The notes below the pieces were generated by a model. That model worked only from the letters and a program-made list of their open reading frames with translations. It had not been told where the DNA came from and searched no databases. A program made the translations under genes and the position numbers. A stretch of DNA of 64,000 nt from an uncultured Verrucomicrobiota bacterium (GTDB lineage: Bacteria > Verrucomicrobiota > Verrucomicrobiia > Limisphaerales > MWDV01), in NCBI GenBank assembly GCA_964548925.1, contig CAZJTM010000003.1:16155-80154 (forward strand). The letters are read 5' to 3'. Shown one piece after another: positions 6,986 through 58,083 of the stretch (position 1 is the first letter of the stretch; every line of letters starts with the position of its first letter).

Positions 6986-8476
6986 TTACTTCAAAACCGT
7001 CGTGGCGGTTTCCGCCCAGCGGAGCAGCGTGCCGGGAAAGAGGCCGAGCCAGAACATGCCCGCGATGCAGATCGCAATGGCTGCATGCATCGGGGCGGAG
7101 ACACAAATCCGTTCGCGTGGCGCCGCGTCCTTGCTCCAATAGATCGCGCGGATGACGCCGAAGTAGTAGTAAAGTGAGATCACCACACCTGCCAGCACCG
7201 TGAAGGCGAGGCAATAGTAGCCGGGGTTCGCCGGGCCCTGCAAAATGACCGCTTTGAGCAGAAGAAATTTTCCAAAGAATCCGGCGAGGGGCGGAATCCC
7301 GGCCAGCGAAACCATCGCCAGGGTCAAAGTGGCCGCGAGCAACGGTGAACGGTGGTTCAGACCCGCCAGACCGGAGACATCCTCCGAATCCAGATGCCGC
7401 ATCACAAGGGTGATGACTGTGAACGCCGCCAACACGGTGAACAGATAGCCGCTCAGGTAATAAAGCACCGCCGCGCCACCATCACTGGCCATCGGCCCTT
7501 TGCCATTGGCCATCGCGCCCGCAAACGCCGCCACGCCCAGCAGCACGTAGCCCGCGTGCGCGATGCTCGAATAGCCGAGCAGCCGCTTGAGGTTGCGTTG
7601 TGGCAGCGCACACAGATTGCCGTAGAGGATCGTGATGCCGGAAATGACGATGAGCAGATTCCGCCAGTCCGCCGTCACGTCCGGGATGGCGGAAAACAAA
7701 AAGCGTAGCAGCAACACGAACCCCGCGGCCTTCGAGCCAATGGCGAGGAACGCCGTCGTGGGCGTCGGCGCGCCCTGGTAAACATCCGGCGTCCAGAATT
7801 GAAATGGGAATGCGGCGATCTTGAAGCCGAGGCCGGCCAGGATGAATAGCACGCCGAACAAGAAAACCCTGTTGTTGGCAGCGGCAAACCTTCCCGAAAC
7901 CATCGCCAGTTCGCTGAAGTTGAACTTGCCCGTCGTTCCCCAAACCAGCGCAATGCCATACACCATGAACGCCGACGACAGCGCGCCCAGGATCAGGTAT
8001 TTCACGCCGGCTTCCAAAGAGAGAACTTTGCCGCGCGTGAAGCTGGTCAGCACATAAAACGTCACGGTGATCAGTTCGATGGACACAAACAGCAGCGCGA
8101 AGTCGTTGGCCGACGCGGCGAACAGCATTCCGGCCAGTGCGAAGATGATGAGCGCGTAGTATTCGGAAATGCCGGCGGCGACCCGGTCAGAAAACTCCAC
8201 AGCCATGACCAGCACGAGCACCGCCGCCAGCAGGAAGAGGCGCTTGAAAAAGACGCTCAGGGCATCCTGGACGAACATTCCGCCAAACGCCGACTGCCCC
8301 AACGAGGCGCAACTGCAATGGCCGGTGAAGGTGTTGACAAGCAGCAACGTCAGCGCGGCGGCGGCGGCGTAGCCGAGCATCCGCTTGCGTTCCGCCGGCA
8401 GCCACAAATCCGCCAGCAGCACCACCAAGCCAAGGGCCACGACCGAGATTTCCAATGACATCAATGAGAGGTTCAT
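6986..8476 (-). CDS. nuoN: NADH-quinone oxidoreductase subunit N
   Basis: 496-aa polytopic antiporter-like subunit and last gene of the nuo series. Its ATG overlaps the nuoM stop (ATGA at 8473-8476). Confidence 0.9.
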   Translation of the reverse strand: MNLSLMSLEISVVALGLVVLLADLWLPAERKRMLGYAAAAALTLLLVNTFTGHCSCASLGQSAFGGMFVQDALSVFFKRLFLLAAVLVLVMAVEFSDRVAAGISEYYALIIFALAGMLFAASANDFALLFVSIELITVTFYVLTSFTRGKVLSLEAGVKYLILGALSSAFMVYGIALVWGTTGKFNFSELAMVSGRFAAANNRVFLFGVLFILAGLGFKIAAFPFQFWTPDVYQGAPTPTTAFLAIGSKAAGFVLLLRFLFSAIPDVTADWRNLLIVISGITILYGNLCALPQRNLKRLLGYSSIAHAGYVLLGVAAFAGAMANGKGPMASDGGAAVLYYLSGYLFTVLAAFTVITLVMRHLDSEDVSGLAGLNHRSPLLAATLTLAMVSLAGIPPLAGFFGKFLLLKAVILQGPANPGYYCLAFTVLAGVVISLYYYFGVIRAIYWSKDAAPRERICVSAPMHAAIAICIAGMFWLGLFPGTLLRWAETATTVLK

Positions 8477-10230
8477 CGTTTGTCCGTAGCAGCCGACGTG
8501 AGGAGGCTCTGATTTTCTTTTGAAATGTCGGCACGCTCGCCCTCACCCTGGCCCTCTCCCCCGGGGAGAGGGCACAGCAGTTGTCCGCTCTGGATTGCGC
8601 CAAAGCCACCCTGCCTAATTCCATCTTCAGATGTGCCAAAAGACTGCGAACGATTCTCCCTCTCCTGGGGGAGAGGGCCGGGGTGAGGGCGGTCCAACGG
8701 ACCATTCTTTACAACCACTTCACGAGTTTTCATCGTCGACATCTTCACAATCTGCTCCGTCACGGGCTTGATCTTCTCTGTCAGCAGGCTCGGGAAGGAG
8801 CCGAAGAGGAGCAAGCTGGCGAGCAGCACTGCGTGGGGCAGCTTGCGCCAGAGACTCGCGTCCGCGAGGTTCGACCATTTCTCGGGCATCGGTCCGTGCA
8901 AGACCGTCCGCGCCATCCGCAACATGTAAACCGCCCCGATCAGCAGCGCACCCCAGACTGCCAGCACCGTCACGATCCGCAATGAGGGTTCCTTCCACGC
9001 GCCGAAAAACACCGTGACTTCGCCGACGAAATTGAGAAAGCCGGGCAAGCCGCATCCGGCCAGCGCCGCCATTGTCAGCGCCACGCCAATGAAACGCAGC
9101 TTCTTCGCCAGCCCCCCGAGGTCACTCATTTCCAACGTGCCGGTCTGGCTGTAAATATAGCCATTCAGACCGAAGAACAGCGCCGCCAGGAAGCCGTGGG
9201 CGACCATGATGACCACCGCGCCGGTCACACCGATGAGGTTCAGGCTTGCGATGCCGAGGAAGATCATGCCCATGTGCGCCACGCTGGAATTACCGATGAG
9301 CAGGTTGAGATTCTTCTGCCGCATCGCCACCCAGCCGACGTAGAGGATGTTGCCCAAGCACAGCCACGCTAGGATGTGCATCCAGCTTTGCGCGGCTTGC
9401 GGCATCAATGGCAGCGCCACGCGGATCAGACCGTAAAGCCCGAACTTCTTCAGCACGCCGGCGTGCAACATCGCCGTCGCGCTCGGCGCCGAGCCGTAAC
9501 CCAGTGCCGCCCACGAGTGGAACGGCCAGAGTGATACGAGAATTCCAAATCCGAACAGCAGCAGCGGGAAGATGAAGTTCTGCGCGCTCGCGGCCATCGT
9601 GTGTTCGGCGAAATACTTCGTCAGCGTCGGGATATCAAAGGTGCGGACGACCGCCGGCACTTGCAGGTAAAGCGCGATGAGGCCGATGAGCGCTAGCAAC
9701 GCACCAACGCTCAGGTAGAGCGTGATTTGGAACGTCGCGTAGTTCTTCCGCTCGCCGCGACCCCACACGCCGATCATGATGAAGGTCGGCACGAGCGCAA
9801 GTTCGTGGAAGAAATAGAAGAAAAACAGGTCAAGCGACATGAACGCGCCGAGGATGCCGCCGGACATCGTCAGCAGCAGGATGTAAAATTCCTTCTCGCG
9901 CGTTTTGATCTCGAACGAGCAACAGGCCGCCGCGAACGCGACAATCGCGCCCATCAACACCAGGCCAACGTTCAAGCCGTCCACGCCCAGTTTACAGGCA
10001 ATGCCGAGCGATTCCGCGCCCAGCCAGGGAATCATGCTGACGAATTTGTAGCCGCTGGCGTCTGCCGTCGCGCCGTTGAACTGGCAGAACATCAGCACGG
10101 CGAGCAGCATCGTGACGAACGTCACACCCAGCGCCACGGCGCGCATGATGACGGCAAAATTGCGCGGCACCAACGCCAGCGCGATTGCGGCGAGTAGCGG
10201 CAGCAGGAATATGAGTGGCAGGGTTGTCAT
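8473..10230 (-). CDS. nuoM: NADH-quinone oxidoreductase subunit M (ATG 10230 preferred over track start 10260)
   Basis: Antiporter-like subunit. The start MTTLPLIFLL is preferred because the 10 upstream codons translate a repeat arm. The last ~88 codons translate dispersed repeats (see findings). Confidence 0.88.
   Translation of the reverse strand: MTTLPLIFLLPLLAAIALALVPRNFAVIMRAVALGVTFVTMLLAVLMFCQFNGATADASGYKFVSMIPWLGAESLGIACKLGVDGLNVGLVLMGAIVAFAAACCSFEIKTREKEFYILLLTMSGGILGAFMSLDLFFFYFFHELALVPTFIMIGVWGRGERKNYATFQITLYLSVGALLALIGLIALYLQVPAVVRTFDIPTLTKYFAEHTMAASAQNFIFPLLLFGFGILVSLWPFHSWAALGYGSAPSATAMLHAGVLKKFGLYGLIRVALPLMPQAAQSWMHILAWLCLGNILYVGWVAMRQKNLNLLIGNSSVAHMGMIFLGIASLNLIGVTGAVVIMVAHGFLAALFFGLNGYIYSQTGTLEMSDLGGLAKKLRFIGVALTMAALAGCGLPGFLNFVGEVTVFFGAWKEPSLRIVTVLAVWGALLIGAVYMLRMARTVLHGPMPEKWSNLADASLWRKLPHAVLLASLLLFGSFPSLLTEKIKPVTEQIVKMSTMKTREVVVKNGPLDRPHPGPLPQERENRSQSFGTSEDGIRQGGFGAIQSGQLLCPLPGGEGQGEGERADISKENQSLLTSAATDKR
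8486..8691. repeat. Composite palindromic repeats inside the nuoM 3' coding tail (family D half-site plus family C double hairpin)
   Basis: Positions 8486-8515 (gtagcagccgacgtgaggaggctctgattt) are identical to 25031-25060. Positions 8538-8573 (cgccctcaccctggccctctcccccggggagagggc) and 8656-8691 (ctccctctcctgggggagagggccggggtgagggcg) are mutually inverted. Each also contains its own short palindrome. Confidence 0.85.
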
Positions 10231-10235
10231 TCTCT

Positions 10236-10320
10236 TTAACGCAAAGGCGCAAAGGGGCAAAGGCGCAAAGGAAAACCTTTTTGCTCTCCGCGTCTTTGCG
10301 TCTTTGCGTCTTTGCGTTTA
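10236..10320. repeat. Family A palindromic element, copy A1 (AACGCAAAGNCGCAAAG arms)
   Basis: Left arm ttaacgcaaaggcgcaaaggggcaaaggcgcaaagg. Right arm cgtctttgcgtctttgcgtctttgcgttta. It fills the GxxExxY-stop to nuoM-start gap. Confidence 0.9.
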
Positions 10321-10327
10321 TTCATGG

Positions 10328-10774
10328 TCATGGATTCTGGACGTTGTCCGTCTTGTCGTTCCGCTTCGGCTGGCGTTTGAAATCCACATCGTCCGGTAAT
10401 CCATTCACCACGCGATGAATTCCATTCTTCACGAGTCTTTCGCCAAAATTGATTACCAGTCCGAGCTTGAGACCGGTGAGTCGCAAGTAGGTTTGCATCT
10501 GCGCTTCGAAGATCGGATTCCATTCCGCAACAGCCTTGTTGTCCACCAGCACCAAACTTTCGACTTTCATGTCGAGCCGAAGCGGTTTGCTCAGAATGCG
10601 TCCCTTGTAGTTGATGCGGACGGGAAGTTGACGTTCCACTTTCAATCCGCGCAGCCCCATCTCTTCGGCTAGGGCTTCTTCATAAACATCCTCACGCAAA
10701 CCCGGCCCGCCGAGTTCACGATGCACTTCTATCGCGGCGTCCACGATGATCCTGGCGATTTCGTTCTCGGTCAT
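10328..10774 (-). CDS. GxxExxY family protein (PD-(D/E)XK-like)
   Basis: 148 aa with the typical N terminus EIARIIVDAAIEVHRELGGPGLREDVYEEAL, containing G-L-R-E-D-V-Y. Bracketed by family A copies A1 and A2. Lies between nuoL and nuoM. Confidence 0.8.
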   Translation of the reverse strand: MTENEIARIIVDAAIEVHRELGGPGLREDVYEEALAEEMGLRGLKVERQLPVRINYKGRILSKPLRLDMKVESLVLVDNKAVAEWNPIFEAQMQTYLRLTGLKLGLVINFGERLVKNGIHRVVNGLPDDVDFKRQPKRNDKTDNVQNP

Positions 10775-10797
10775 CGCGCACCGCCTTTCGCAAATTC

Positions 10798-10888
10798 TTT
10801 TAACGCAAAGTCGCTAAGACGCAAAGACGCCAAGGAAAAACAAAGTCTTCCCTCTTTGCGCCTTTGCGTCTTTGCGTCTTTGCGTTGA
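10798..10888. repeat. Family A palindromic element, copy A2
   Basis: Arms tttaacgcaaagtcgctaagacgcaaagacgccaagg and ctctttgcgcctttgcgtctttgcgtctttgcgttgaa. Confidence 0.9.
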
Positions 10889-10911
10889 ATTCTCATGTTA
10901 TTTCAAAAACA

Positions 10912-11330
10912 CTAGAGTTTGGAACGGTCCCGGATAGCGTCAACCAAACCGAGTTTGCGGAACTCTTCGTGAATCCAGATTTCAGTTCCTGCGACTGCTC
11001 CGCCCTTCCCTCCCGCAACGCCTTCTCCAACGCGCCGTCGTTCGTAGTAAATGTGAGCCATGTCCGGTGAATCCCAAGTCTTGGCGTCCAAGTCCAACAG
11101 AAGCTGTCGCAGGATTTCTTCTGAACATTTCACTTTGCTCGCAGCACATACAACGAAGATTTGCCCGCCGTCATCGCCTTCCATAACAACGACTCCGTCT
11201 GGCTGTGACTTGGCTTCTGCCAGCGACTTGAACGAGACGTAAGAAGATCCTTCGGCTTCTGCCATCATCTTCCGCACACCACTTTCATGGTCAGGAAGAT
11301 TGTCGCCGGTAAAAATGGTTTTCTTTGTGT

Positions 11331-11334
<4 letters not shown>
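10912..11334 (-). CDS. Hypothetical 140-aa protein translationally coupled to nuoL
   Basis: Internal ATG at 11334 (MNTKKTIFTGDN..) overlaps the nuoL stop as ATGA (11331-11334). The longer track ORF (to 11487) would overlap nuoL with an Arg-rich shadow. No family recognised. Visibly AT-richer than nuoL. Confidence 0.5.
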
Positions 11335-13205
<1,871 letters not shown>

Positions 13206-13213
13206 CCGGTTTC

Positions 13214-13400
13214 CTAACGCAAAGGCGCAAAGGCGCAAAGACGCAAAGCTTCGGAGCGCGACTGTGTGCGAAGCACCAGTCGCAGCACTTCCGCAACGCT
13301 GACGCGCTGCGGCTGGGTCTGCGACCACAGCCGCGCTCCGATAATTCGCAGCAGACTTTTGATTTTTCCGCGTCTTTGCGTCATTGCGTCTTTGCGTTGA
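13214..13400. repeat. Family A copy A3 with family B element (13250-13340) nested in its loop
   Basis: Arms ctaacgcaaaggcgcaaaggcgcaaagacgcaaagc and cgcgtctttgcgtcattgcgtctttgcgttga. The inner element cggagcgcgactgtgtgcgaagcaccagtcgcag...ctgcgaccacagccgcgctccg is self-complementary. Confidence 0.9.
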
Positions 13401-13419
13401 ATTGCTTGGCCTTTCACAA

Positions 13420-13725
13420 TCAAAGTTTCATCGAGGTCAAATCTTCCACGTGCGCGGACTGGCGCTTCCGATAAAGGGCAACGATCAACGCCAGACCGAC
13501 CGCCACTTCCGCCGCCGCCACGGTGATGATGAAGAACACCATCACCTGGCCGTTGAGGTTGTCGTTGAACCGCGAAAAGGAAACCAGCGCCAGGTTCGCC
13601 GAGTTGAGCATCAACTCCAGTGACATATACATCACGAGCAAGTTGCGCCGGGTGATGACGCCAAACAAACCCAGCGCGAACAGCAGCGCGCTCACGACCA
13701 AGTAATGTTCCAGCCCTACGTTCAT
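13420..13725 (-). CDS. nuoK: NADH-quinone oxidoreductase subunit K (ATG 13725 preferred)
   Basis: 101 aa, [45 protein letters not shown]. The upstream 48 track codons translate repeats. Confidence 0.92.
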
Positions 13726-13729
13726 GTTT

Positions 13730-13920
13730 CTTAACGCAAAAACGCAGAGACGCAAAAGCGCGAAGATTCGGAGCGCGACTGTATGCGAAGCACCAGTGGC
13801 AGCACCTCCGCAACGTCGCCGCGCTGCGGTCGGGTCTGCGACCACAGACGCCCATTGTTCAGTTCCCAATTCACATTCATTTCTTTGCGTCTTGCTGACT
13901 TGGCGCCTTTGCGTTCATTT
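13730..13920. repeat. Family A copy A4 with family B element (13767-13850) nested
   Basis: Arms cttaacgcaaaaacgcagagacgcaaaagcgcgaag and ttctttgcgtcttgctgacttggcgcctttgcgttca. The right arm overlaps the nuoJ stop codon (13915-13917). The inner element is about 85% similar by eye to 13250-13340. Confidence 0.85.
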
Positions 13921-14430
13921 CAAGTCCCTCTTGCTAAGCAAAATCACGCCCACCATCGCCACGAGGAGGAGGATGGAGACGATTTCAAACGGCAACAGGT
14001 AATTCGTAAACAGCATCCTGCCGAGCGCGGCGGGGTCGCCGACAGCGGTGGGGGCGGGCACGTTTTCGCCGGGCTTGGTCGCGAGCAGCGACCGAATGAA
14101 GATGGCGACGATGGCGCCCACGGAGATCAATCCAGCGACAAGCCCGAGCTTTTTGACCTTGCGACGCTCTTCCTCTTTCAAATCGAGCAGCATGATGACG
14201 AAGAGGAACAGCACCATCACCGCGCCGGCATAGACCAGCACCTGCACCGCCGCGAGAAAGAACGCGTGCAGCAAGACGAACAAGCCCGCCATCGAGATGA
14301 TCGTGAGCACGAGGAACATCGCGCTCGTGACCGGATTGCGGCTGAACGGGTTCGCGACGACCAGCGCCCCGCACGCGAGCGTCAGGAACGCGAAGACGTA
14401 AAACAAAATGTTGGGCAATTGATCCGGCAT
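13915..14430 (-). CDS. nuoJ: NADH-quinone oxidoreductase subunit J (ATG 14430 preferred)
   Basis: 171 aa, MPDQLPNILFYVFAFLTLACGALVVANPFSRNPVTSAM. The upstream 52 track codons translate repeat A5. Confidence 0.9.
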   Translation of the reverse strand: MPDQLPNILFYVFAFLTLACGALVVANPFSRNPVTSAMFLVLTIISMAGLFVLLHAFFLAAVQVLVYAGAVMVLFLFVIMLLDLKEEERRKVKKLGLVAGLISVGAIVAIFIRSLLATKPGENVPAPTAVGDPAALGRMLFTNYLLPFEIVSILLLVAMVGVILLSKRDLK

Positions 14431-14433
14431 TTT

Positions 14434-14514
14434 CTTTAACGCAAAGCCGCAAAGCCGCAACGACGGAGAGCAAAATCTCCTTTGCGACTTTGCGACTTTG
14501 CGTCTTTGCGTTGA
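14434..14514. repeat. Family A palindromic element, copy A5
   Basis: Arms ctttaacgcaaagccgcaaagccgcaacg and cctttgcgactttgcgactttgcgtctttgcgttga. It fills the nuoI-nuoJ gap. Confidence 0.9.
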
Positions 14515-14528
14515 TTCAGTTTCATCCG

Positions 14529-15071
14529 TCAGACCTTCACCGGGAAATTTTCCTGCGCCTTGGCCTCTTCCAGTTTGTGCTTCCACTTTTGCACACCCGC
14601 GTGGACGCCGCCGAGCGTGAGGAGTTTTTCCTTGTTGTAGATCATTTCCTGCCGGCTCGTGCCGGTAAGCGAATAATCCTTTTGCAGGAAGATGGCTTCC
14701 TCGGGGCAGACTTCCTGGCAGAAGCCGCAGAAGATGCAGCGGAGCATGTTGATCTCGAATTCGAGCGGCATCTTCTCAGCGTTCGGACGATCAGCCGAGG
14801 GGCCGGCTGGGCCGGGCGGCGTGATCTTGATGGCCTTGGGCGGGCAAACGAATTCGCAGAGCTGGCAGGAGACGCACTTGGTGTTGCCGTCCTGATCCCG
14901 CACGAGATACGGCGCGCCACGGTATCCGGGCGGCACGACCCATTTCTCTTCGGGATACTGCATCGTCACCTTCTTCTTGAAGAAGTGGCGCAGCGTGACC
15001 TTGAACCCGCCGATGATGGCCGGCAGGTAAAGCCGCTCCCAGAGATTCAAGGGTCTGCGTTTGACAATCAT
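14529..15071 (-). CDS. nuoI: NADH-quinone oxidoreductase subunit I
   Basis: Two 4Fe-4S ferredoxin motifs: CVSCQLCEFVCP and CIFCGFCQEVCP. Confidence 0.95.
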   Translation of the reverse strand: MIVKRRPLNLWERLYLPAIIGGFKVTLRHFFKKKVTMQYPEEKWVVPPGYRGAPYLVRDQDGNTKCVSCQLCEFVCPPKAIKITPPGPAGPSADRPNAEKMPLEFEINMLRCIFCGFCQEVCPEEAIFLQKDYSLTGTSRQEMIYNKEKLLTLGGVHAGVQKWKHKLEEAKAQENFPVKV

Positions 15072-15346
15072 GCGGCAACAGCCTCACGGCGCTGTTTGAG
15101 AAACTCGATGGAGGGTTTTCCGAGCGCCAGGCCTTTGGCGCTCAAATCCTCGTCCACCTCGGGCCAATGGACGCCGAAGCCCATGCCCAGCAGTTCATAA
15201 TGATCACGTTGTGCCTGCGTCGCCCGAAACAACCGCGGGAACCACATCAACGGCAACGCCACGGAGCGTCCGTCGTCGAAATCAACCTTCAACGTGTCCG
15301 GCGTGCTGCTCACGCGAACCACCCGAATCTCATCCAAAGTATTCAT
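15068..15346 (-). CDS. DUF2442-like small protein
   Basis: 92 aa. VRVSSTPDTLKVDFDDGRSVALPLMWFPRLFRATQAQRDHYELLGMGFGVHWPEVDEDLS matches the family pattern as I recall it. The stop overlaps the nuoI ATG (ATGA). Confidence 0.75.
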   Translation of the reverse strand: MNTLDEIRVVRVSSTPDTLKVDFDDGRSVALPLMWFPRLFRATQAQRDHYELLGMGFGVHWPEVDEDLSAKGLALGKPSIEFLKQRREAVAA

Positions 15347-15563
15347 GCCATGCTCTCAGCAGCTCAGGTTGGAATTGGGTCAGGATATCGTGGATCTCGT
15401 TGAGTTCATGCCGGGAAAAGCCCACGTTCCGCGCGAGCTGTACCGGCTCAATCCAGAACTTGGCTTGATGGCTGTCCTTGTCCGCGTGGACATGGGGTGG
15501 CTCGTCGCCATCGGCGCTGAAGAAGCCGATGCGATAGCCTTTGATGCGCAATACTGTTGGCAT
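15330..15563 (-). CDS. DUF4160-like small protein (ATG 15563 preferred)
   Basis: 77 aa. MPTVLRIKGYRIGFFSADGDEPPHVHADKDSHQAKFWI is the typical family N terminus. It starts 7 nt after the nuoH stop and overlaps the DUF2442 gene by 17 nt. Confidence 0.78.
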   Translation of the reverse strand: MPTVLRIKGYRIGFFSADGDEPPHVHADKDSHQAKFWIEPVQLARNVGFSRHELNEIHDILTQFQPELLRAWHEYFG

Positions 15564-15570
15564 TTCTTTA

Positions 15571-16641
15571 TCATCGTGCCAGCCACCACAACCATATCGC
15601 CGTGACCACGATGTTCGCCAGCGCGATCGGGATGAAGCGCAGCCAGCCAAGATTCATGAGTTGGTCATAACGAAAACGCGGCCACATCCAGCGCACCCAG
15701 ATGAACATCACCAGGAACGCGAAGACCTTGGCCAGGAAGATCGCGATATGCATCACCCCGCCGAGCAAGGTGGCTGCGGGTTGATCAAGGCCGAACCACG
15801 GCAGCGTCCAGCCGCCGAAGAACAGCGTCACCATCATGGCCGAGGCGAGGATCATGTTCGCGTATTCGCCCATGAAGAACAGGGCGAACTTGATGGAGCT
15901 GTATTCGATGTTGTAGCCGCCGGCGAGTTCCTGCTCGGCTTCGGGCAGGTCGAACGGCGTGCGGTTCGTTTCCGCAAATGCCGCGCCGAGGAAGATGACG
16001 AACGACAGGAACGTCATCGGGTTCTGGCAGACGAACCAGTTGGGCAGGAAGCGAAATTGCGTCCCGGTTTGCGCGCTGATGACTTCGCTCAAGTTGAGGC
16101 TGCCGACACACAGGAAGATCGGGATCACGCTCATGCCCATGGCGATTTCGTAGGAGATCATCTGCGCCGTCGAGCGGATGCCGCCGAGAAACGGATACTT
16201 GGAGTTCGCCGCGTAACCCGCCAGCACGATGCTATAGACCCCGAGCGAAACGATGCCGAACGTGTAAAGGATGCCGATGTTCAGGTCCGCCAGCACCATG
16301 CTTTGCTTGCCGATCTGCGAGCCGAACGGAATCACCGCGAGGTTCAGGATCGCCGGGATGAGCGCGAGGGCCGGCGCGAGGACGTAGAAAACCTTGCGGA
16401 CGTGTGCCGGCGTCATTTCTTCCTTGAAGAACGCCTTTACGGCATCGGCGGCGGGCTGGAGCAAGCCAAACGGCCCGGCGCGATTTGGTCCGATGCGGTC
16501 CTGGATGAACGCGCACACGCGCCGCTCCACCAGCACGATGTAAGCGACCATGAACATCAGCACACTGAACGCGGCCACGGCTTTCACGCCCGTGAAGATC
16601 ACGAACTGCGTTGTCGCATCCAGGTTGTTGAGCCAGTCCAT
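15571..16641 (-). CDS. nuoH: NADH-quinone oxidoreductase subunit H
   Basis: 356-aa ND1-like polytopic protein (ERRVCAFIQDRIGPNRAGPFGLLQP, YPFLGGIRSTAQMISYE). Confidence 0.95.
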   Translation of the reverse strand: MDWLNNLDATTQFVIFTGVKAVAAFSVLMFMVAYIVLVERRVCAFIQDRIGPNRAGPFGLLQPAADAVKAFFKEEMTPAHVRKVFYVLAPALALIPAILNLAVIPFGSQIGKQSMVLADLNIGILYTFGIVSLGVYSIVLAGYAANSKYPFLGGIRSTAQMISYEIAMGMSVIPIFLCVGSLNLSEVISAQTGTQFRFLPNWFVCQNPMTFLSFVIFLGAAFAETNRTPFDLPEAEQELAGGYNIEYSSIKFALFFMGEYANMILASAMMVTLFFGGWTLPWFGLDQPAATLLGGVMHIAIFLAKVFAFLVMFIWVRWMWPRFRYDQLMNLGWLRFIPIALANIVVTAIWLWWLAR

Positions 16642-17691
16642 CTAGTCTTTCTCCGAAAGCACCCGTTCCAATTCGGCCGGCGCGGGCAGCAGCTTGGCCA
16701 GAGGCTTTGGCAAGCGGTCCGTCAGCTTGTATTCCGCCACGCCGATGGGTTTGCGCAAGTCGCGCAACGCATACTCGACGACCGTGCGGCCTTTACCCTT
16801 GCACAGGATCAACCCGACCGACGGTTGGTCGTCCGGGTGCCGGACCTGTGCGTCGAGCGCCGACAAGTAGAAATTCATCTTGCCCGCGAACTCCGGCTCG
16901 AAATCACGCATCTTCAGGTCAATCGCGAAGAGGCAGCGCAGACGGTGATGAAAGAACAGCAAGTCCACGCGGAAATCCCGTCCGTCCACTTCGAGGCCAT
17001 ACTCGCTGCCGAGCAAGGCGAAGCCCGCGCCGAGTTCGAGCAGGAAATCTTTCAGCCGCTCCAGCAACGCGCGCTGGAGTTCCCGCTCCTTGGCCTGTTT
17101 CCTCACTTGCAGGAAATCGAAGACATAGGGGTCTTTCAAGGTCTGCGCGACCAACTCGGACTGTTTCGCGGGCAGCGTGTGCTTGAAGTTGTTTGCCTTG
17201 AGCGCGCCGGCCTGACGGCGATGCAAGCCGGTTTCAATCTGATGCACCAGCACCGCGCGCGACCAGCCGTTCGCGATCGTTTGCCGCGCATACCAGATGC
17301 GCTCGGCGGGGCTCTTAACGGAGTTCAACAGGACCAGATTGTGCCCCCACGGAATTTCTGCGACAAGCTGTCGCAGAATTTGGCGGTTGCGGTACGCCTC
17401 GAAGAAACGCCGCATGTCCCAGAGGTTGCGCGCGGAGAATCCCATCATCTCTGGAAACTCACGGCGCAAGTCCGCCGACAGTCTTTGAATCACGGCGTCG
17501 CCCCACCCAGCCGATTCCTGCCGTTCCATGATGCCCTTCCCGATTTCCCAATAGAGCACCACCATCTCGCGGTTCGCTGACAACGCAGCCTTGACCTGCG
17601 CCAAGCGGATACGCGACTTCAACTGCTGAAGCCAGGTCGCGTAACCCTTGGGCAGGGTTGGCGTCAAACTGCGTTGTTTCATTCGAGCCAT
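16642..17691 (-). CDS. DUF1016/YhcG-like PD-(D/E)XK nuclease (ATG 17691 preferred; track start 17805)
   Basis: YhcG-like N-terminal region (YWEIGKGIMERQ..WGDAVIQRLSADLRREFPEMMGFSARNLWDMRRFF). C-terminal nuclease core (FAIDLKMRDFEPEFAGKMNFYLSALD). The TAG stop abuts the nuoH ATG with a 0-nt spacer. Confidence 0.8.
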   Translation of the reverse strand: MARMKQRSLTPTLPKGYATWLQQLKSRIRLAQVKAALSANREMVVLYWEIGKGIMERQESAGWGDAVIQRLSADLRREFPEMMGFSARNLWDMRRFFEAYRNRQILRQLVAEIPWGHNLVLLNSVKSPAERIWYARQTIANGWSRAVLVHQIETGLHRRQAGALKANNFKHTLPAKQSELVAQTLKDPYVFDFLQVRKQAKERELQRALLERLKDFLLELGAGFALLGSEYGLEVDGRDFRVDLLFFHHRLRCLFAIDLKMRDFEPEFAGKMNFYLSALDAQVRHPDDQPSVGLILCKGKGRTVVEYALRDLRKPIGVAEYKLTDRLPKPLAKLLPAPAELERVLSEKD

Positions 17692-17823
17692 GTCTGGCAA
17701 ATCACCGCCGCACCGCTTGTCCAACAGCCTGTTGGACTTTTCGCCCGACGTCAGGCCAAATTCTGCGACAACCTGCCGCAGAATTAGTGCAACAAGCTGT
17801 TGCACAAATCAGCCTGCGCCGAT

Positions 17824-19509
17824 TCAAATCTTCACCGTCACGCCTGCGTCACCGAGACTGGCCCACGTCAGGCCATTGAACGCGGGCACATCCTTCGCCA
17901 TCTCGTTAAACAAACCCTCGATGGTCAGGAAACCGCCTTTGCCCAAGACGTTGAACACGAGGTCGTGCAGGAAATCCCATTCGGGCCGGGCGTCGCCCGG
18001 CGGCTCCACGGCTTTCATAAACTTCTGCACGCGACCTTTGGTGTTCGTGAACGTGCCGCGTTTCTCGGCGTGTGCGCAGCCGGGCAGGAGATAATGCGCC
18101 AACTTCGTTGTCGCGTTCGGCAAAATGTCGCTCACGACCAGCGTCTCCAGCTTGCCGAGCAAATCCGCGCCAAGGCCATGCTTCGTGACATCCTCACCGA
18201 AAGCGATCAGCGTCTTGATCTTCCCGCTCGCGATGCCGTCCGCGATCTTGGGCAGGTTGATGCCCATCTCGGTGAAGCACATCCCGGTCAGCCGCGCGCC
18301 ATTGGTGTTCGGATTCTTGTCGGCGCTCACGAGTAATTTGTCCGGCTCGCCGACGCGCTCGATGGAATCGCTGATCGCCCCCAGCTTCACCTTGAGCTTG
18401 CTCAACAGCCAGAGTTCTTCGTTCGTCTGCCGCGCGGAGGCGATGATGGCCACCGAACCCGCCGGAGCTTGCTTAAGTTTGTCGGCGATTTCGCTGAGCG
18501 CCTCGGTCCATGACGATTTCTCGCCGCGCACCAAAACGTCCTTCAAACGGTCATCGCGCTGAATCCACTTGTAGTTCAGGCGGCCGGAGTCGCACATCCA
18601 CGGGCCATTGACAGCGTCGTTCTCGCGCGGCGTGTAGCGGTAGATCCGTTCCTCGCGCGAGCCGATGACAATGTTGCAGCCCGTCCCACAACTCGTGCAG
18701 ACGCTCTTCGTTTCCTTCAGAAACCACACGCGCATCTGGAAACGAAAATCCTTCGATGTGAGCGCGCCCACGGGACAGATGTCCACGGTGTTGAGCGTGT
18801 AGTTGTTGTCGAACGGCATCCCCGGATACGTGGCGATGGTGTTGTAGCTGCCGCGATTGATGATGCCGAGGGCGTCGTCGCCCGCCACGTCCCTCGTGAA
18901 GCGAATGCAGCGCGAGCACAGGATGCAGCGCTCGGCGTCGAGCATGATGCGCGGGCCGAGATCAACGGCTTTGGGCTTGTGAACCTTCGCCTCGACGAAG
19001 CGGCTCGCGCTCTGGCCGTAGTCCACGGAATATTCCTGAAGCTTGCACTCGCCGGCCTGGTCGCAAATCGGGCAATCGAGCGGGTGATTGATTAGCAGGG
19101 ACTCCAGCACGCCTTCGCGCATGGCCTTCACGGTGGGCGTGTTCGTGTAAATCTCCATGCCCGGCGAAATCGGCGTGGCGCAGGCGATGGCCGGGCGTGG
19201 CGATTTGGCGATCTTCGGCGTGCCGTCGGGATTCAGGATGGGCTTGCGGTCCGGGCCGAGGGCGGGCGTGCCGAACTCGACGAGGCACATGCGGCAGTTG
19301 CCGGCGATTGGGAGCTTCGGATGATAGCAATAATGCGGCACCATCGCGCCCACGGCCTCAGCGGCTTGGATCATCGTCGTGGGCACGAGCTTGCCCTGCC
19401 AATCCGGCGAAAGCCGCGGCACTTCCACGTCGCGCCCGTCCACCGTCACCTTGATCTTTTCGATCGCGGGCGGCGCGGGCTTGGATTCAGTTGTAACGGC
19501 TGCTGACAT
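17824..19509 (-). CDS. nuoG: NADH-quinone oxidoreductase subunit G
   Basis: N-terminal 2Fe-2S region (CYHPKLPIAGNCRMCLV). 4Fe-4S motifs CPICDQAGEC and CILCSRCIRF. Followed by a molybdopterin-like domain. Confidence 0.93.
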   Translation of the reverse strand: MSAAVTTESKPAPPAIEKIKVTVDGRDVEVPRLSPDWQGKLVPTTMIQAAEAVGAMVPHYCYHPKLPIAGNCRMCLVEFGTPALGPDRKPILNPDGTPKIAKSPRPAIACATPISPGMEIYTNTPTVKAMREGVLESLLINHPLDCPICDQAGECKLQEYSVDYGQSASRFVEAKVHKPKAVDLGPRIMLDAERCILCSRCIRFTRDVAGDDALGIINRGSYNTIATYPGMPFDNNYTLNTVDICPVGALTSKDFRFQMRVWFLKETKSVCTSCGTGCNIVIGSREERIYRYTPRENDAVNGPWMCDSGRLNYKWIQRDDRLKDVLVRGEKSSWTEALSEIADKLKQAPAGSVAIIASARQTNEELWLLSKLKVKLGAISDSIERVGEPDKLLVSADKNPNTNGARLTGMCFTEMGINLPKIADGIASGKIKTLIAFGEDVTKHGLGADLLGKLETLVVSDILPNATTKLAHYLLPGCAHAEKRGTFTNTKGRVQKFMKAVEPPGDARPEWDFLHDLVFNVLGKGGFLTIEGLFNEMAKDVPAFNGLTWASLGDAGVTVKI

Positions 19510-19513
19510 TTTT

Positions 19514-19595
19514 AGTTAACGCAAAGGCGCAAAGACGCGGAGACGCAAAAGAAGAAACTCTTTGCGACTTGGCGACTTTGCATCTTGGCGTTGAA
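19514..19595. repeat. Family A palindromic element, copy A6
   Basis: Arms agttaacgcaaaggcgcaaagacgcggagacgcaaaag and ctctttgcgacttggcgactttgcatcttggcgttgaa. It fills the nuoF-nuoG gap. Confidence 0.88.
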
Positions 19596-19606
19596 ACAAT
19601 TTCATT

Positions 19607-21064
19607 TCACCTTGCAGCGGCGGGTTCTTCTTGCTCTGCCGCCGATGATTTCGAGACGACGGCATTTGGGGCGCGCTTCGCTTCGTCTGCTGCGCCTTTG
19701 GCTACAAACTCATCCTTGAACTTGGCAACGAAGCTCTGAACCGGCCACGAGCAGGCTTCGCCGAACGCGCAAATCGTGCGGCCGCCGGGGATGTTATCGG
19801 CAATCTTCGCCAGATACTCCGCGTCTTGGGCGCGCCCGCCACCGTGGGCGAGGCGATGCAGGGCCTTGCTCATCCAGAGCGAACCTTCCCGGCAGGGCGT
19901 GCATTGGCCGCAGCTTTCGTGCGCGTAAAACTCGGCGATGTTGGCCAGCGCTTCCACAATGTCCGTCGAGTCGTCCATCACGATGATCGCGCTCGAACCG
20001 CTCATCGAGCCCGCCTGAATGATGGTGTCGAAGTCGTAGGGCAGGTCGAGCATGTCCAACTCCTGCTCCACGTCCTTGCCGTCCACCTTGCGCTTGATTT
20101 TGAAGCGTTCGCCCGCCTTGAACACCTTGGCCGACGAGCCACCCGGGATCACAGCCTTCAACTGTCTCGGTGGCCCGCCCGGCTCGGGCTCCCGCAACCC
20201 ACCGCCAAATGCTGGATCGAAGATCAGATCGCGGAGTGTCACCTTGCCCGTTTCAACCTCGTAGTAGCCGGGCCGCTTGACGTGGCCGCTCAAGCTCACG
20301 ATGCGCGTGCCGGTGTTGTTCGGCGTGCCGAGCTTGGCGAATTCCGCGCCGCCCATCGCGACGATGTGCTTCACGTTGCAGAGCGTCTCGACGTTGTTCA
20401 CGATGGTCGGGCACATATAGAGGCCCAGCACCGCCGGGAAATACGGTGGCTTGATGCGCGGATACGGCCGCTTGCCTTCGAGCGATTCGATGAGGCCCGT
20501 TTCCTCGCCGCAGATGTAAGCGCCCGCACCGCGATGGACGTAGATTTCCAAATCGTAGCCACTGCCGAGAATGTTCTTGCCAAGAAAGTTCTTGGCGCGC
20601 GCTTCGGCCAAGGCCTTGTTGAGCAGCTTCGCTCCCTGCGGCATTTCGCCGCGGATGTAGATGTAGGCGAGCTTTACGTCGTTCGCGAAGCACGAGAGGA
20701 TCATGCCCTCGATGAGCTGGTGCGGATCCTTGTGGATGATTTGACGATCCTTGAATGTTCCTGGCTCGGATTCGTCGGCGTTGCAGATGAGATAGATCGG
20801 CTTGCCGCTCTTACGGTCCACGAAGCTCCACTTAAGCCCGCACGAGAAGCCCGCCCCGCCGCGACCGCGCAGGCCGGACTTCATGACTTCGTCCCGGATT
20901 TGCTCCTGTGGCGATTTCTGTTTGCCGTCGGGCAAAGCCATTGGCTGCATCGCCAGCACTTTCCTGAGCACCTCATAGCCGCCATGTCGCAAATAGCACT
21001 CGATGTCGGGCGTGTAACCCGGCTGATCGGCGTATTTGAGGATGAGGCGGTATTCGGAGGGCAT
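19607..21064 (-). CDS. nuoF: NADH-quinone oxidoreductase subunit F
   Basis: Motifs GRGGAGFSCGLKW and ESCGQCTPCREG. It carries an Ala/Glu-rich C-terminal tail of about 40 aa. Confidence 0.95.
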   Translation of the reverse strand: MPSEYRLILKYADQPGYTPDIECYLRHGGYEVLRKVLAMQPMALPDGKQKSPQEQIRDEVMKSGLRGRGGAGFSCGLKWSFVDRKSGKPIYLICNADESEPGTFKDRQIIHKDPHQLIEGMILSCFANDVKLAYIYIRGEMPQGAKLLNKALAEARAKNFLGKNILGSGYDLEIYVHRGAGAYICGEETGLIESLEGKRPYPRIKPPYFPAVLGLYMCPTIVNNVETLCNVKHIVAMGGAEFAKLGTPNNTGTRIVSLSGHVKRPGYYEVETGKVTLRDLIFDPAFGGGLREPEPGGPPRQLKAVIPGGSSAKVFKAGERFKIKRKVDGKDVEQELDMLDLPYDFDTIIQAGSMSGSSAIIVMDDSTDIVEALANIAEFYAHESCGQCTPCREGSLWMSKALHRLAHGGGRAQDAEYLAKIADNIPGGRTICAFGEACSWPVQSFVAKFKDEFVAKGAADEAKRAPNAVVSKSSAAEQEEPAAAR

Positions 21065-21074
21065 GTTAGCGTGG

Positions 21075-21095
21075 TGCGTGATGCGTAATGCGTGA
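21075..21095. repeat. Three tandem heptamers (tgcgtga tgcgtaa tgcgtga) just upstream of the nuoF start
   Basis: Read directly from the sequence. The minus-strand translation would be the ITHHA-type repeat peptide. Confidence 0.7.
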
Positions 21096-21153
21096 ACCCA
21101 AGGCCCGGCTTGACTGGGCGGGGAAAGGGTTTAGGCTTTCCACCGCTCCGGCT

Positions 21154-21227
21154 TGCCCGATGGTGTAACGGTAGCACAGCAGACTCTGGATCTGTTTGTC
21201 ATGGTTCAAATCCATGTCGGGCAGCCA
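21154..21227 (+). tRNA. tRNA-Gln (anticodon CTG), CCA encoded
   Basis: Manual cloverleaf. Acceptor TGCCCGA/TCGGGCA is 7/7 paired with U1-A72 and G73. D stem GTGT/GCAC. Anticodon stem GCAGA/TCTGT with loop CTCTGGA. T arm CATGG-TTCAAAT-CCATG. Total 74 nt. It lies on the strand opposite the surrounding nuo genes. Confidence 0.85.
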
Positions 21228-21271
21228 ACTTCCGTTTACGGGTCGAAGCTTGCGGATAGCGAACTTCTTTT

Positions 21272-21724
21272 TCATTTCGCCCTCCTCCGCAGTTTAAGCG
21301 TCTGGTCAATCGCGTGAATGTGAGCCGGATCTTTGTCCCGCATCACGGCGGCCTTACTCTTGCGGATGGACTCCAACGGCATGACGGGAATCTCGCAACC
21401 GTGGAATTTCAGTTTGTGCGCCTTTCGCATCTCAGTGCTGAACGTGTCGAGGCCGGTAACTTCGTAGATAAAATTCACCAGCATCCCGTCGCTCAATTCC
21501 ACGACGGTGTTGCGGACCATGGCTGCCCCCAAGCGCAAGGCGACGTTCACCGCGCGCATGTATTGGCGGGCGGGAAGGTCAATCCACAGGTCCACATCGT
21601 GCGTGACCACCGGAACACCTTGGAGGAGGGCTGCAGTCATGCCTATGAGCTGGAAGCGAATTTTTTCAGCGCGGAGCGCCCCCACAAGCCGAACGAGCGG
21701 AGATACGTCTCGTTTATCTGCCAA
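21272..21724 (-). CDS. Nucleotidyltransferase-fold protein (minimal NTase / DUF6036-like); start uncertain (TTG 21724, GTG 21685, or track ATG 21862)
   Basis: IRFQLIGMTAALLQGVPVVTHDVDLWIDLP resembles the G-x-A...T-x-D-x-D NTase core. The N-terminal 45 codons of the 196-aa track ORF are Arg-rich and overlap a better-looking small ORF in another frame. Confidence 0.5.
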   Translation of the reverse strand: MADKRDVSPLVRLVGALRAEKIRFQLIGMTAALLQGVPVVTHDVDLWIDLPARQYMRAVNVALRLGAAMVRNTVVELSDGMLVNFIYEVTGLDTFSTEMRKAHKLKFHGCEIPVMPLESIRKSKAAVMRDKDPAHIHAIDQTLKLRRRAK

Positions 21725-21843
21725 CGTTCGTCTGGTGTCGCCGCCAGACTTCGGGCGTAGAGGACCTTTTCGTGCTCGTCCAAGCCGCGCACGCGTTTGA
21801 TGCGTGCGTAAACTTTCCGCCAATCTTTGAGGCTTGTTTGCAT
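21643..21843 (-). CDS. Hypothetical 66-aa helical protein (possible partner of the NTase-like gene)
   Basis: MQTSLKDWRKVYARIKRVRGLDEHEKVLYARSLAATPDERWQINETYLRSFGLWG has balanced composition. It starts 29 nt after the nuoE stop and overlaps the start region of the downstream NTase-like ORF. Confidence 0.4.
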   Translation of the reverse strand: MQTSLKDWRKVYARIKRVRGLDEHEKVLYARSLAATPDERWQINETYLRSFGLWGRSALKKFASSS

Positions 21844-21872
21844 GTTTGCGCCTGGTTGCCATCCGGAATCGT

Positions 21873-22358
21873 CTATTTGCACTTGGCCACTATTTCGTCT
21901 GCTTTGGCGCGGCTGACGCCTTCATGGAAATCGTCGTTCACCATGATGACTGGCGCCGTGCCGCAACTGGCCAGGCATTCGACGAACTCAACCGTGAACT
22001 TGCCGTCCTTCGTCGTCTGCGGACCGTGTTTGTGCGCGTCGAGCCCCAACTTCTCGCAAAAGTGCTTGTGCAGTTGATATGAGCCGCCGAGCGCGCAGCT
22101 CAACGTGCGGCAAACCTTGATTTGATACTTTCCGACCGGCTGCTGCCGGAACATCGGGTAGAACGTGACCAGTTCGTAAACGTTGATCGGTTGCAGGCCG
22201 AGCTTCCTGGCCGTCCACTCGACGGCTTCCTGCGAAATCCAGCCGAAGTGTTCCTGAATCGCATGCAGCACCATGAGCGACGCGCTGCGCTTCACGGGAT
22301 AATGCGTGATCAGCTCGTCAATCTCGGCTTCCAAACTGGCTGGGATGGCGAAACTCAT
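21873..22358 (-). CDS. nuoE: NADH-quinone oxidoreductase subunit E
   Basis: 161-aa thioredoxin-like 2Fe-2S subunit (VCRTLSCALGG, ECLASCGTAPV). 4-nt overlap with nuoD. Confidence 0.93.
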   Translation of the reverse strand: MSFAIPASLEAEIDELITHYPVKRSASLMVLHAIQEHFGWISQEAVEWTARKLGLQPINVYELVTFYPMFRQQPVGKYQIKVCRTLSCALGGSYQLHKHFCEKLGLDAHKHGPQTTKDGKFTVEFVECLASCGTAPVIMVNDDFHEGVSRAKADEIVAKCK

Positions 22359-23629: not shown

Positions 23630-23660
23630 GGAACTGTTCAGACCGAATGGAACGGCGTTG

Positions 23661-24074
23661 TCATGGCTTCGCCTCCGGCGGAAGCAAATTCAGCACGAAA
23701 TCGTAAAGGGCTTGGGCATCTCGCAGTGCTGCGTCAAATTCCTCACGCGTTGGCATCGGGTCCTCGGTGAGTCCCGGATAACGGAAGGCAGAAACGTAAG
23801 GCGTGAGCCGTTCCGCGGTTCCGGTGAAAAGGGTGAAGTCAGTTCGCAACGCGGCGGCCTGTCGGATGAGCCGTCGGAGGTCATGCGTCTTTTCAAATGA
23901 AACATTCCGGGCCGCAAGCCAGCCTTTCACGGCCTTCTCCGCCGCCTGCTGGCAATGATAGATGGCGGTGTCAAGCGGCCCCCCGGCGGCGTTGGCTGTG
24001 ATGCGCGCCGTTTGCAGATCGTGCAGCGCCTTGGTCAACCATTCGCGCGTCAGCCTGGAAATGGCCTCATCCAT
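23661..24074 (-). CDS. HEPN domain protein (ATG 24074 preferred)
   Basis: MDEAISRLTREWLTKALHDLQTA...AIYHCQQAAEKAVKGWL...FEKTHDLRRLI shows the typical HEPN helix pattern. 8-nt overlap with the upstream MNT gene. Confidence 0.8.
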   Translation of the reverse strand: MDEAISRLTREWLTKALHDLQTARITANAAGGPLDTAIYHCQQAAEKAVKGWLAARNVSFEKTHDLRRLIRQAAALRTDFTLFTGTAERLTPYVSAFRYPGLTEDPMPTREEFDAALRDAQALYDFVLNLLPPEAKP

Positions 24075-24387
24075 AAAGTTTTCGCCCCCGGTGCAGGATG
24101 TCGTGCTGGATGGACGCGCGCAAATCCTTGTAGCGGTCAAATTCCTCCCGCGTTTGCACAAACACGTCCTTGCTCATGTCCAAGTCGCCCAGGCACCGAT
24201 GCGCGCGTTGCATCCGACGGATCGCTCGTTCGTTGCTTTCGGGGACAATCACCATCAAGTCCACATCGCTGTCCTCGTGCGGCGTGCCCCAGGCATGGGA
24301 GCCGAACAGGAATATCTGCTCCGGCTGGAACTCGGCTTTCAGCCGTTCCACGGCCTTCTCCAACAATCCTGCCGGGATTTCTTTCAT
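24067..24387 (-). CDS. Minimal nucleotidyltransferase (MNT) domain protein
   Basis: Pol-beta-type NTase motif LFGSHAWGTPHEDSDVDLMVIV. It starts 13 nt after the nuoC stop. Confidence 0.85.
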   Translation of the reverse strand: MKEIPAGLLEKAVERLKAEFQPEQIFLFGSHAWGTPHEDSDVDLMVIVPESNERAIRRMQRAHRCLGDLDMSKDVFVQTREEFDRYKDLRASIQHDILHRGRKLYG

Positions 24388-24400
24388 GGTTAATCCAAGA

Positions 24401-24979: not shown

Positions 24980-24997
24980 AGTAAAAAGAAATTGAAA

Positions 24998-25137: not shown

Positions 25138-25143
25138 TTGAAG

Positions 25144-58078: not shown

Positions 58079-58083
58079 GGGGA

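Follow-up and report, generated by a model that had tools for sequence, protein, structure and literature searches.

Palindromic repeats between the genes of a Limisphaerales complex I operon are crossed by small open reading frames that may relay translation

Six copies of a palindromic repeat, here called family A, separate genes of the minus-strand nuo (complex I) operon in a 64,000-nt stretch of DNA from an uncultured Verrucomicrobiota bacterium (contig CAZJTM010000003.1, positions 16,155 to 80,154; the whole stretch is referred to below as the window). We found that, read in the mRNA sense, each of the six elements is crossed by a mini open reading frame (ORF), or in one case (A4) by a relay of two ORFs, that is tied to the flanking genes. 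The relay ORF starts on or beside the stop codon of the upstream gene, often in an ATGA overlap, and ends either on the element's terminal TAA or TAG or on the next ATG. We consider it probable, at roughly 0.7, that the six elements are selfish palindromes akin to repetitive extragenic palindromic (REP) sequences and MITEs (transposable elements of the miniature inverted-repeat kind), which have persisted only where translational coupling is kept intact by a relay ORF.

The operon that hosts all of the elements is the following.
Positions 6986 to 25674, minus strand: nuoB-nuoN operon, in which all cistrons and inserted genes overlap, lie no more than 14 nt apart, or are separated by gaps that an ORF bridges.
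Its genes, whose identities agree with Pfam, are arranged in the order nuoB, nuoC, two small genes, nuoD, nuoE, orf196, nuoF, nuoG, a DUF1016/YhcG gene, nuoH, a DUF4160 and a DUF2442 gene, nuoI, nuoJ, nuoK, nuoL, a gene labeled X2, a GxxExxY/PDDEXK_3 gene, nuoM, and nuoN. A lenient Shine-Dalgarno-like motif was present upstream of only 5 of the 19 start codons in this chain.

An earlier note on this DNA had reported six copies with arms able to form hairpins of about 30 bp, and our sequence check confirmed the copies, their coordinates, their termini, and their spacings to five ATGs. All six (A1 to A6) lie within the operon between minus-strand cistrons and in identical orientation. The note's placement of them in six gaps between nuo genes holds in part: A2 and A1 lie on either side of the GxxExxY/PDDEXK_3 gene, not between two nuo genes, and 29 nt separate A2 from the next ATG. 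Tandem Repeats Finder and a repeat finder resolved the arms into three to four tandem 8-nt units, [ACGT]CGCAAAG, arranged in inverted pairs, and the copies contain 13 of the 15 CGCAAAG and 16 of the 20 CTTTGCG heptamers in the window (29 of 35 together). One terminus reads GCGTTGA in A2, A3, A5, and A6, GCGTTCA in A4, and GCGTTTA in A1; the other reads TTAACGC in five copies and CTAACGC in A3. This second end, TTAA or TTAG, lies 5 to 8 nt from the ATG of nuoG, nuoJ, nuoK, nuoL, and nuoM. In mRNA sense the gaps fold at -33.8 to -109.2 kcal/mol into hairpins with stems of 25 to 35 bp, with the base of the helix about 7 nt from the AUG. In a shuffle test of five gaps, z values ranged from -5.6 to -7.4, and none of 200 shuffles (0 of 200) matched the native fold; for A4 we report the fold energy alone. 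The six hairpins are the following.
Positions 10236 to 10320, minus strand: A1 hairpin (GxxExxY to nuoM), with arms of four CGCAAAGN units; -43 kcal/mol, z -7.4.
Positions 10798 to 10888, minus strand: A2 hairpin (X2 to GxxExxY); -59.7 kcal/mol, z -7.1.
Positions 13214 to 13400, minus strand: A3 hairpin (nuoK to nuoL), with a nested palindrome at 13251-13341; -109.2 kcal/mol, z -7.2.
Positions 13730 to 13920, minus strand: A4 hairpin (nuoJ to nuoK), with a nested palindrome at about 13770-13860; -74.6 kcal/mol.
Positions 14434 to 14514, minus strand: A5 hairpin (nuoI to nuoJ); -45.9 kcal/mol, z -6.3.
Positions 19514 to 19595, minus strand: A6 hairpin (nuoF to nuoG); -33.8 kcal/mol, z -5.6.
A3 and A4 are 86% identical over 126 nt, and each carries its nested palindrome of about 90 nt in the loop. 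These nested palindromes belong to a second family (GGAGCGCG..CTGTGGTCGCAGACCC...), and related copies are nested in hairpins of relatives, in the nuoB-nuoC gap of locus L123 and at 4440-4520 of L090.

The ORFs that cross these elements are located as follows.
Positions 10236 to 10331, minus strand: 31-codon relay ORF across A1, starting at an ATG that overlaps the GxxExxY stop (ATGA); its TAA, in the TTAA terminus, is followed after 5 nt by the nuoM ATG.
Positions 10771 to 10896, minus strand: relay ORF across A2, 41 codons; its ATG lies 16 nt past the X2 stop, it passes through the TTAA terminus in a different frame, and its TGA overlaps the GxxExxY ATG (ATGA).
Positions 13214 to 13423, minus strand: 69-codon relay ORF across A3; its start is either a TTG that overlaps the nuoK stop or, in the same frame, a GTG 3 nt beyond that stop, and the ORF stays open across the nested palindrome and ends at the TAG in the TTAG terminus, 8 nt before the nuoL ATG.
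Positions 13731 to 13918, minus strand: two-ORF relay across A4, of 13 codons (13877-13918) and 49 codons (13731-13880); the first ATG overlaps the nuoJ stop, the first TGA overlaps the second ATG, and the second ORF ends with TAA, 5 nt, and the nuoK ATG.
Positions 14436 to 14525, minus strand: relay ORF across A5, 29 codons; its ATG lies 3 nt past the nuoI TGA, and its TAA 5 nt before the nuoJ ATG.
Positions 19516 to 19605, minus strand: relay ORF across A6, 29 codons; its ATG lies 1 nt past the nuoF TGA, and its TAA 6 nt before the nuoG ATG.
The earlier note had described a fixed register between the elements and downstream start codons and had ascribed to the elements an initiation context lacking a Shine-Dalgarno sequence. 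The register is real and non-random, but its cause is not that context as such: the "fixed register" is the stop codon of the bridging ORF, at reinitiation distance from the next start. A2 is the exception because its ORF passes the terminus in another frame and finishes as ATGA on the start codon that follows.

Neither strand of the repeat arms contains a stop codon in any frame, so that open frames alone mean little, and we therefore set fixed criteria. A gap was counted as bridged when an ORF had its start codon at -3 to +20 nt relative to the upstream stop's last base, and when the last base of its stop codon fell anywhere from 15 nt ahead of the downstream start's first base to 3 nt beyond it. 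Gaps of 30 to 330 nt between consecutive same-strand genes were tested in the window operon and in six related operons, chosen through NuoK homologues and all from Limisphaerales (Verrucomicrobiota). Over-extended gene starts were corrected by homology, and the identical criterion was applied to the controls. Locus L128 was left out as too fragmented, and the Logan contigs L001 and L002, both of which break inside a family-A repeat, are identical to the window and carry no comparative information. Across the seven operons, a single ORF bridged 39 of the 45 internal gaps (87%), 30 of them with an ATG start. The reverse-complement control yielded one bridged gap in 49 (2%), and dinucleotide shuffles that kept the flanks gave an expectation of 9.1 of 45 (about 20%; P about 1e-25). 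None of the four gaps after nuoN, at the operon ends, was bridged. In the window alone, five of six gaps were bridged against 1.2 expected (P about 9e-4), the sixth being the two-ORF relay of A4. Among bridged gaps, 20 start offsets and 14 end offsets were exactly -3, the ATGA type.

Several points weigh against reading these counts as the product of selection for coupling. Stop-free arms make open frames easy, as the 9 of 45 gaps bridged in shuffles attest. The insertions are partly shared by descent, and independent events number fewer than 39; under an earlier, stricter criterion, bridged gaps made up the majority in about 20 of 32 sequence clusters. Six of the 45 internal gaps were not bridged by one ORF, and some of these need relays or offer an ATG only at 26 to 36 nt downstream. 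The start codons of downstream genes were placed by homology, not by experiment, and three loci come from assemblies with frameshift-fragmented genes. Finally, at a hairpin between a BirA-like gene and coaX elsewhere in the window, an antisense ORF fits the criteria too.

One rival explanation holds that the ORFs are a passive by-product, formed when stop-free arms insert at ATGA junctions with target duplication and owing nothing to selection for bridging. Short direct repeats that include ATG do flank some copies, namely ATGAACG around A4, ATGAC around A1, and GAAATGAA at nuoJ/nuoK of L124, and together with the openness of the arms and the 20% background of the shuffles they count in favor of such an origin. 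A passive origin sits poorly, however, with the excess of bridging over both shuffled and antisense sequence, with its absence from the gaps at operon ends, with loops and nested palindromes that stay open over as much as 235 to 277 nt, and with a frame that is kept through indels and hairpin decay. We regard it as very unlikely.

The related operons also hold junctions without insertions, where gaps run from -4 to 7 nt (for example, 3 nt at nuoK/nuoL, 5 nt at nuoL/nuoM, and 3 nt at nuoI/nuoJ). Because these empty junctions overlap or leave gaps of 3 to 7 nt, tight coupling looks like the ancestral state. In different genomes the same junctions hold unrelated tandem-arm hairpins, built of CTCCAAG, GAAGATG/CCATCCTC, CACGGAT, TCGAACA, or AAATCCG units, or else a GGTAGGG REP-like palindrome or small genes. 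Nearly all occupied junctions are ATGA-joined or ORF-bridged, across these unrelated repeat families, and one 79-codon ORF spans an entire 235-nt gap. The closest relative, L123, whose NuoK is 99% identical to that of the window, has family A only at nuoF/nuoG and an unrelated family at nuoI/nuoJ; its nuoK/nuoL and nuoL/nuoM gaps, of 3 and 5 nt, hold no insertion where the window has A3 and A2/A1.

This turnover bears on whether the hairpins are functional RNA elements, REP-like stabilizers or RNase III-type processing sites that set segmental stability and subunit ratios, with the ORFs incidental. The earlier note had proposed a built-in REP-type device of this kind, a proposal that finds no support in the comparison with L123, which lacks insertions at two of the junctions and carries an unrelated family at a third. 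The stems are long and stable (25 to 35 bp, z down to -7.4), some hairpin is present at almost every junction in every genome, and effects on translation and mRNA decay have been reported for REPs near stop codons (PMC12306157, citing Liang 2015 and Newbury 1987). Occupancy of individual junctions, however, is unconserved, and one and the same junction can hold different families. A functional-RNA explanation would also leave unexplained why start and stop codons of ORFs lie at the gap ends on the sense strand only. Moreover, fold energies did not differ between strands over 43 structured gaps (Wilcoxon p 0.82), and we saw no terminator-like tails. We therefore think it unlikely that the hairpins are primarily such elements; a contribution to mRNA processing or to strict coupling is possible.

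Two more specific proposals about the hairpins were dropped. Intrinsic terminators were rejected, since 14 terminator-like sites were found against 16.9 expected, with none at the end of an element. The same was true of strand asymmetry: the mRNA strand of A1 has A·C mismatches where the antisense has G·U, yet there is no general difference between strands. The only match above the Rfam gathering threshold in the window was a tRNA.

Orthologous gaps preserve the ORFs while their sequences change. The A6 orthologue in L123 retains 29 codons at 77% DNA identity, and its sole 1-nt indel falls in the spacer after the TAA. Net length differences of four orthologous bridged gap pairs were multiples of 3 (24, 12, 6, and 6 nt); of three other pairs of related gaps, two differed by 4 nt and by 25 nt, and in the remaining one the difference, of 9 nt, lay before the start of the ORF. 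Orthologues of A1 in L252 and L254 keep the ATGA start and the TAA followed by 5 nt, and orthologues of A2 in L129, L252, and L254 end ATGA on the GxxExxY start. In these A1 and A2 orthologues the ORFs persist despite diverged arms and loops, an 8-nt change in gap length being offset by a shifted start codon. The A1 orthologues also share the residues MNKRKDAKTQRR...FAPLR, as might be expected if the mini-ORFs encoded functional small proteins, for instance accessory complex I peptides. The shared residues, though, are dictated by the repeat arms and the central parts differ, and the unrelated repeat families at other junctions yield unrelated peptides. A small-protein function therefore strikes us as highly improbable.

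We infer, from the arrangement of the sequence, that the mini-ORFs are translated and that selection for coupling is what maintains them. Because the cistrons otherwise overlap or sit 3 to 7 nt apart, the operon appears to rely on translational coupling, and the repeat would have colonized junctions that had been joined by stop/start overlaps or gaps of 3 to 7 nt. A ribosome ending the upstream gene would reinitiate on the mini-ORF, through an ATGA-type overlap or at a start 1 to 16 nt downstream; translating the mini-ORF would melt the 25- to 35-bp hairpin; and the ribosome would be released 5 to 8 nt before the next ATG, or on an ATGA, and would reinitiate there. Copies that broke the relay would have been lost. 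Protection of an otherwise untranslated stretch from Rho-dependent polarity would perhaps select in the same direction. With the base of the helix about 7 nt from the AUG, the hairpins probably block independent initiation of the downstream cistrons and so enforce strict coupling. An effect on stoichiometry could then arise as a consequence of strict coupling and not as a conserved device.

The repeat itself is far more widespread than this operon. Exact-pattern scans for CGCAAAG-octamer hairpins in species-representative genomes and metagenomes (loci L003-L122 and L132-L251) returned at least 120 loci in the former and at least 120 in the latter. At least nine phyla are listed: Acidobacteriota (many of them Pyrinomonadaceae), Verrucomicrobiota, Planctomycetota, Chlamydiota, Chloroflexota, Cyanobacteria, Bacteroidota, Proteobacteria, and Myxococcota. 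Most of the matches listed are hairpins whose inverted symmetry extends into flanking sequence that varies from lineage to lineage, for instance TCTCA...TGAGA or TTCAA...TTGAA. Among the matches listed there are also lone arms, hairpins in reversed (R-F) order, and arms placed around whole genes, with L081 and L013 as examples, and an array form occurs in Dolichospermum (L106, 5513-5940), where six identical 81-nt tandem units each carry a TCTCA-CGCAAAG x3 arm.

The constant polarity that the earlier note described holds for the six copies of the window and is not a property of the family. We rejected polarity and register as intrinsic family traits, because among the metagenome matches listed the TTAA and TTGA ends adjoin gene starts and gene ends alike; in the same matches, distances to starts spread over 9 to 30 nt. 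Of the crudely called junction-type elements among the matches listed, a sense-strand ORF bridged 2 of 28 and 5 of 30, and an antisense ORF 1 of 28 and 3 of 30. Since, in the copies listed elsewhere, end type shows no link to a position beside a gene start or a gene end and bridging is rare, polarity, register, and ORFs belong to the operon context and not to the repeat.

Family A consists of short, multicopy, extragenic palindromes and in this respect is REP-type. As to the hallmarks of MITEs, terminal inverted repeats and a target-site duplication, inverted ends are trivially present, and short direct repeats border some copies (ATGAACG at A4, ATGAC at A1) and not others. A GTAG or CGTC tag is absent from the family-A ends, whose termini read T[CAG]AACGC...GCGTTA[AG], and a tblastn search with a Y1 transposase found no gene for a REP-associated tyrosine transposase (RAYT) in the window. 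The Y1 gene of relatives scores above the IS200/IS605 model cutoff and below the RAYT cutoff, and it is flanked by other hairpins. Among ORFs beside the hairpins in the genome matches listed, PDDEXK_3 (GxxExxY) was the commonest Pfam family (5 of 94), the rest being ordinary genes. GxxExxY/PDDEXK_3 genes lie beside or between CGCAAAG arms in unrelated phyla (L010, L011, L013, L062, L071, L168, and L198), as at 10328-10774 in the window. This adjacency could reflect a mobilizing enzyme or a shared site preference. The window gene recurs at 83 to 100% identity at the same nuoL-nuoM site in many genomes, and its 120 best homologues are all orthologues at that site; given this conservation, it is an old resident there.

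Small inserted genes next to structured repeats also invite comparison with integrons, whose attC core sites are RYYYAAC/GTTRRRY. If the elements were attC-like sites, the small genes would be cassettes; some copies do have AAC...GTT ends resembling these cores, start codons follow closely after the 3' end in a cassette-like manner, and small accessory genes are inserted in the operon. In the window, however, ATTCAAC fits only A2 and A3, and the 3' ends do not fit GTTRRRY. Most copies in other phyla, with TCTCA...TGAGA flanks, lack AAC/GTT. Essential nuo genes would also need to be cassettes, and we saw no integrase gene in the fetched operon loci, in a search that was not exhaustive. We rejected an attC identity, to which we attach scarcely any probability.

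More broadly, the whole Limisphaerales complex I operon might constitute one unbroken ribosome relay, in which internal cistrons are started almost only by reinitiation and all insertions are "translation-transparent." The tandem-octamer hairpins, with stops at both ends (TTAA/TTGA), would then be cross-phylum mobile elements adapted to such sites, possibly mobilized by the GxxExxY PD-(D/E)XK protein. We put this extension forward only tentatively and think it rather doubtful.

By analogy, the closest known counterpart is the mycobacterial interspersed repetitive unit (MIRU). MIRUs are direct, often tandem units of about 46 to 101 bp in Mycobacterium and are not known to form hairpins. Like the elements described here, they are repeats between genes of polycistronic operons with a sense ORF inside that is coupled to its neighbor by ATGA (-4); they seem to insert at start codons, and the -4 coupling of the internal ORF likely minimizes their effect on expression (PMC12548453, citing Supply et al. 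1997). The elements of the window likewise lie between co-oriented operon genes and contain a sense ORF that abuts or overlaps the flanking stop and start, which places them in a MIRU-like functional class. They differ in being palindromic, with tandem arm units of 7 to 10 nt, in belonging to several unrelated families, and in occurring in Verrucomicrobiota, a distinction drawn on these features; bridging here also spans nested repeats, inserted genes, and an antisense tRNA region.

Other known systems share single features with these elements. REPs and their composites, the bacterial interspersed mosaic elements (BIMEs) and the REP doublets (REPINs) associated with RAYTs, are likewise short multicopy extragenic palindromes, often in operons near stop codons. 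Flanking ORFs can take their stop codons from REP ends, REPs within ORFs have been noted, and a GTAG or CGTC tag is conserved at one REP end (PMC3733652); stalling of ribosomes has been reported for REPs that lie within 15 nt of a stop codon (PMC12306157, citing Liang 2015). Family A differs from REPs and REPINs in lacking the tag, in having no RAYT gene in the window, and in its much longer stems built of tandem octamers. Rickettsia palindromic elements (RPEs), which persist as in-frame insertions (PMC10969869), and in-frame MITEs resemble our elements as palindromic repeats that persist by staying translatable, and a C-terminal extension of NuoM in the window is the same situation. RPEs, however, are in-frame fusions inside genes, whereas here we see mostly separate mini-cistrons between genes. 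In engineered bicistronic design cassettes, the ribosome is brought in by a short leader ORF, whose translation opens up structure at the downstream start (PMC12548453); those cassettes are man-made, whereas the leader ORF here lies within a natural repeat. Our literature search, outside of which most subscription-journal papers lay, found no description of ORFs bridging palindromic repeats, no octamer-arm hairpins or arm sequences of this kind, and no such elements in Verrucomicrobiota. It also found no link between MITEs and translational coupling.

If the relay ORFs are translated, they would provide a testable rule for how selfish repeats live in essential, tightly coupled operons. The explanation, if true, would extend the little-studied MIRU idea to structured palindromic repeats in another phylum and point to organisms whose internal cistrons may depend almost wholly on reinitiation. 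It also carries warnings for annotation. Many tiny ORFs in gaps may be conduits for ribosomes, and a hairpin inside an operon is not necessarily a regulator. The N-terminal "extensions" annotated on NuoK and NuoC consist of translated repeats: many database NuoK sequences are 120 to 151 aa long versus a true 101, and the excess, which is the translated upstream repeat, is an annotation artifact of the stop-free arms.

Beyond family A, the window contains other bridged gaps and translated repeats.
Positions 24976 to 25131, minus strand: relay ORF between nuoB and nuoC, over a tandem-arm hairpin with CACGGAT units (24980-25143); its TGA overlaps the nuoC GTG start.
Positions 21066 to 21275, minus strand: 69-codon relay ORF in the 207-nt gap before nuoF, with an ATGA-overlap start and, at its end, TAA, 1 nt, and ATG.
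Positions 8473 to 8720, minus strand: C-terminal extension of NuoM, formed in frame from other repeat families; its stop overlaps the nuoN ATG (ATGA).
Positions 58075 to 58260, minus strand: relay ORF (GTGA ... ATGA) over an AAATCCG-unit hairpin between the BirA-like gene and coaX, outside the nuo operon.
A 31-nt gap before nuoD is likewise ORF-bridged. Within the NuoM extension a further palindrome (CGCCCTCACCCTGGCCCTCTCCCC...) is translated at 8538-8691, and a 36-nt sequence (CGTAGCAGCCGACGTGAGGAGGCTCTGATTT.CTTT) of the NuoM tail (8485-8520) recurs at 97% identity in the loop of the nuoB/nuoC hairpin (25030-25065). The gap just upstream of nuoF (21065-21271) contains a tRNA-Gln(CTG) gene antisense to the operon (21154-21227, plus strand). 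The same antisense tRNA-like sequence lies between nuoE and nuoF in L123, and in relatives ATGA-joined ORFs of 84 to 155 aa (orf127, orf155, and others) cross the antisense tRNA region.

Small accessory genes use the nuo operon of this lineage as a landing site, and nearly all of them are linked to their neighbors through ATGA overlaps.
Positions 10328 to 11334, 15068 to 15563, 16642 to 17805, 21272 to 21862, and 23661 to 24400: accessory-gene regions in the window.
The accessory genes of the window comprise the GxxExxY gene, a 140-aa ORF without family, the DUF1016/YhcG gene, a 196-aa ORF, a probable two-gene insert between nuoC and nuoD, and the DUF4160 and DUF2442 pair, which has a weak match to the DhiT toxin. 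In relatives (L123-L131) they include an IS200-like Y1 transposase between nuoH and nuoI, antitoxin/ParE, Dam, and PIN genes. A 28-nt palindrome (AATTCTGCGACA.C.TG.CGCAGAATT) occurs three times, at 17353-17380 and 17758-17809, with copies both within the DUF1016/YhcG gene and at its 5' end. Elsewhere in the window, a TTCGGAT x4.3 tandem repeat (31096-31125) lies inside a minus-strand ORF of 1,897 aa (29465-35158), which may represent two genes fused through a translated repeat.

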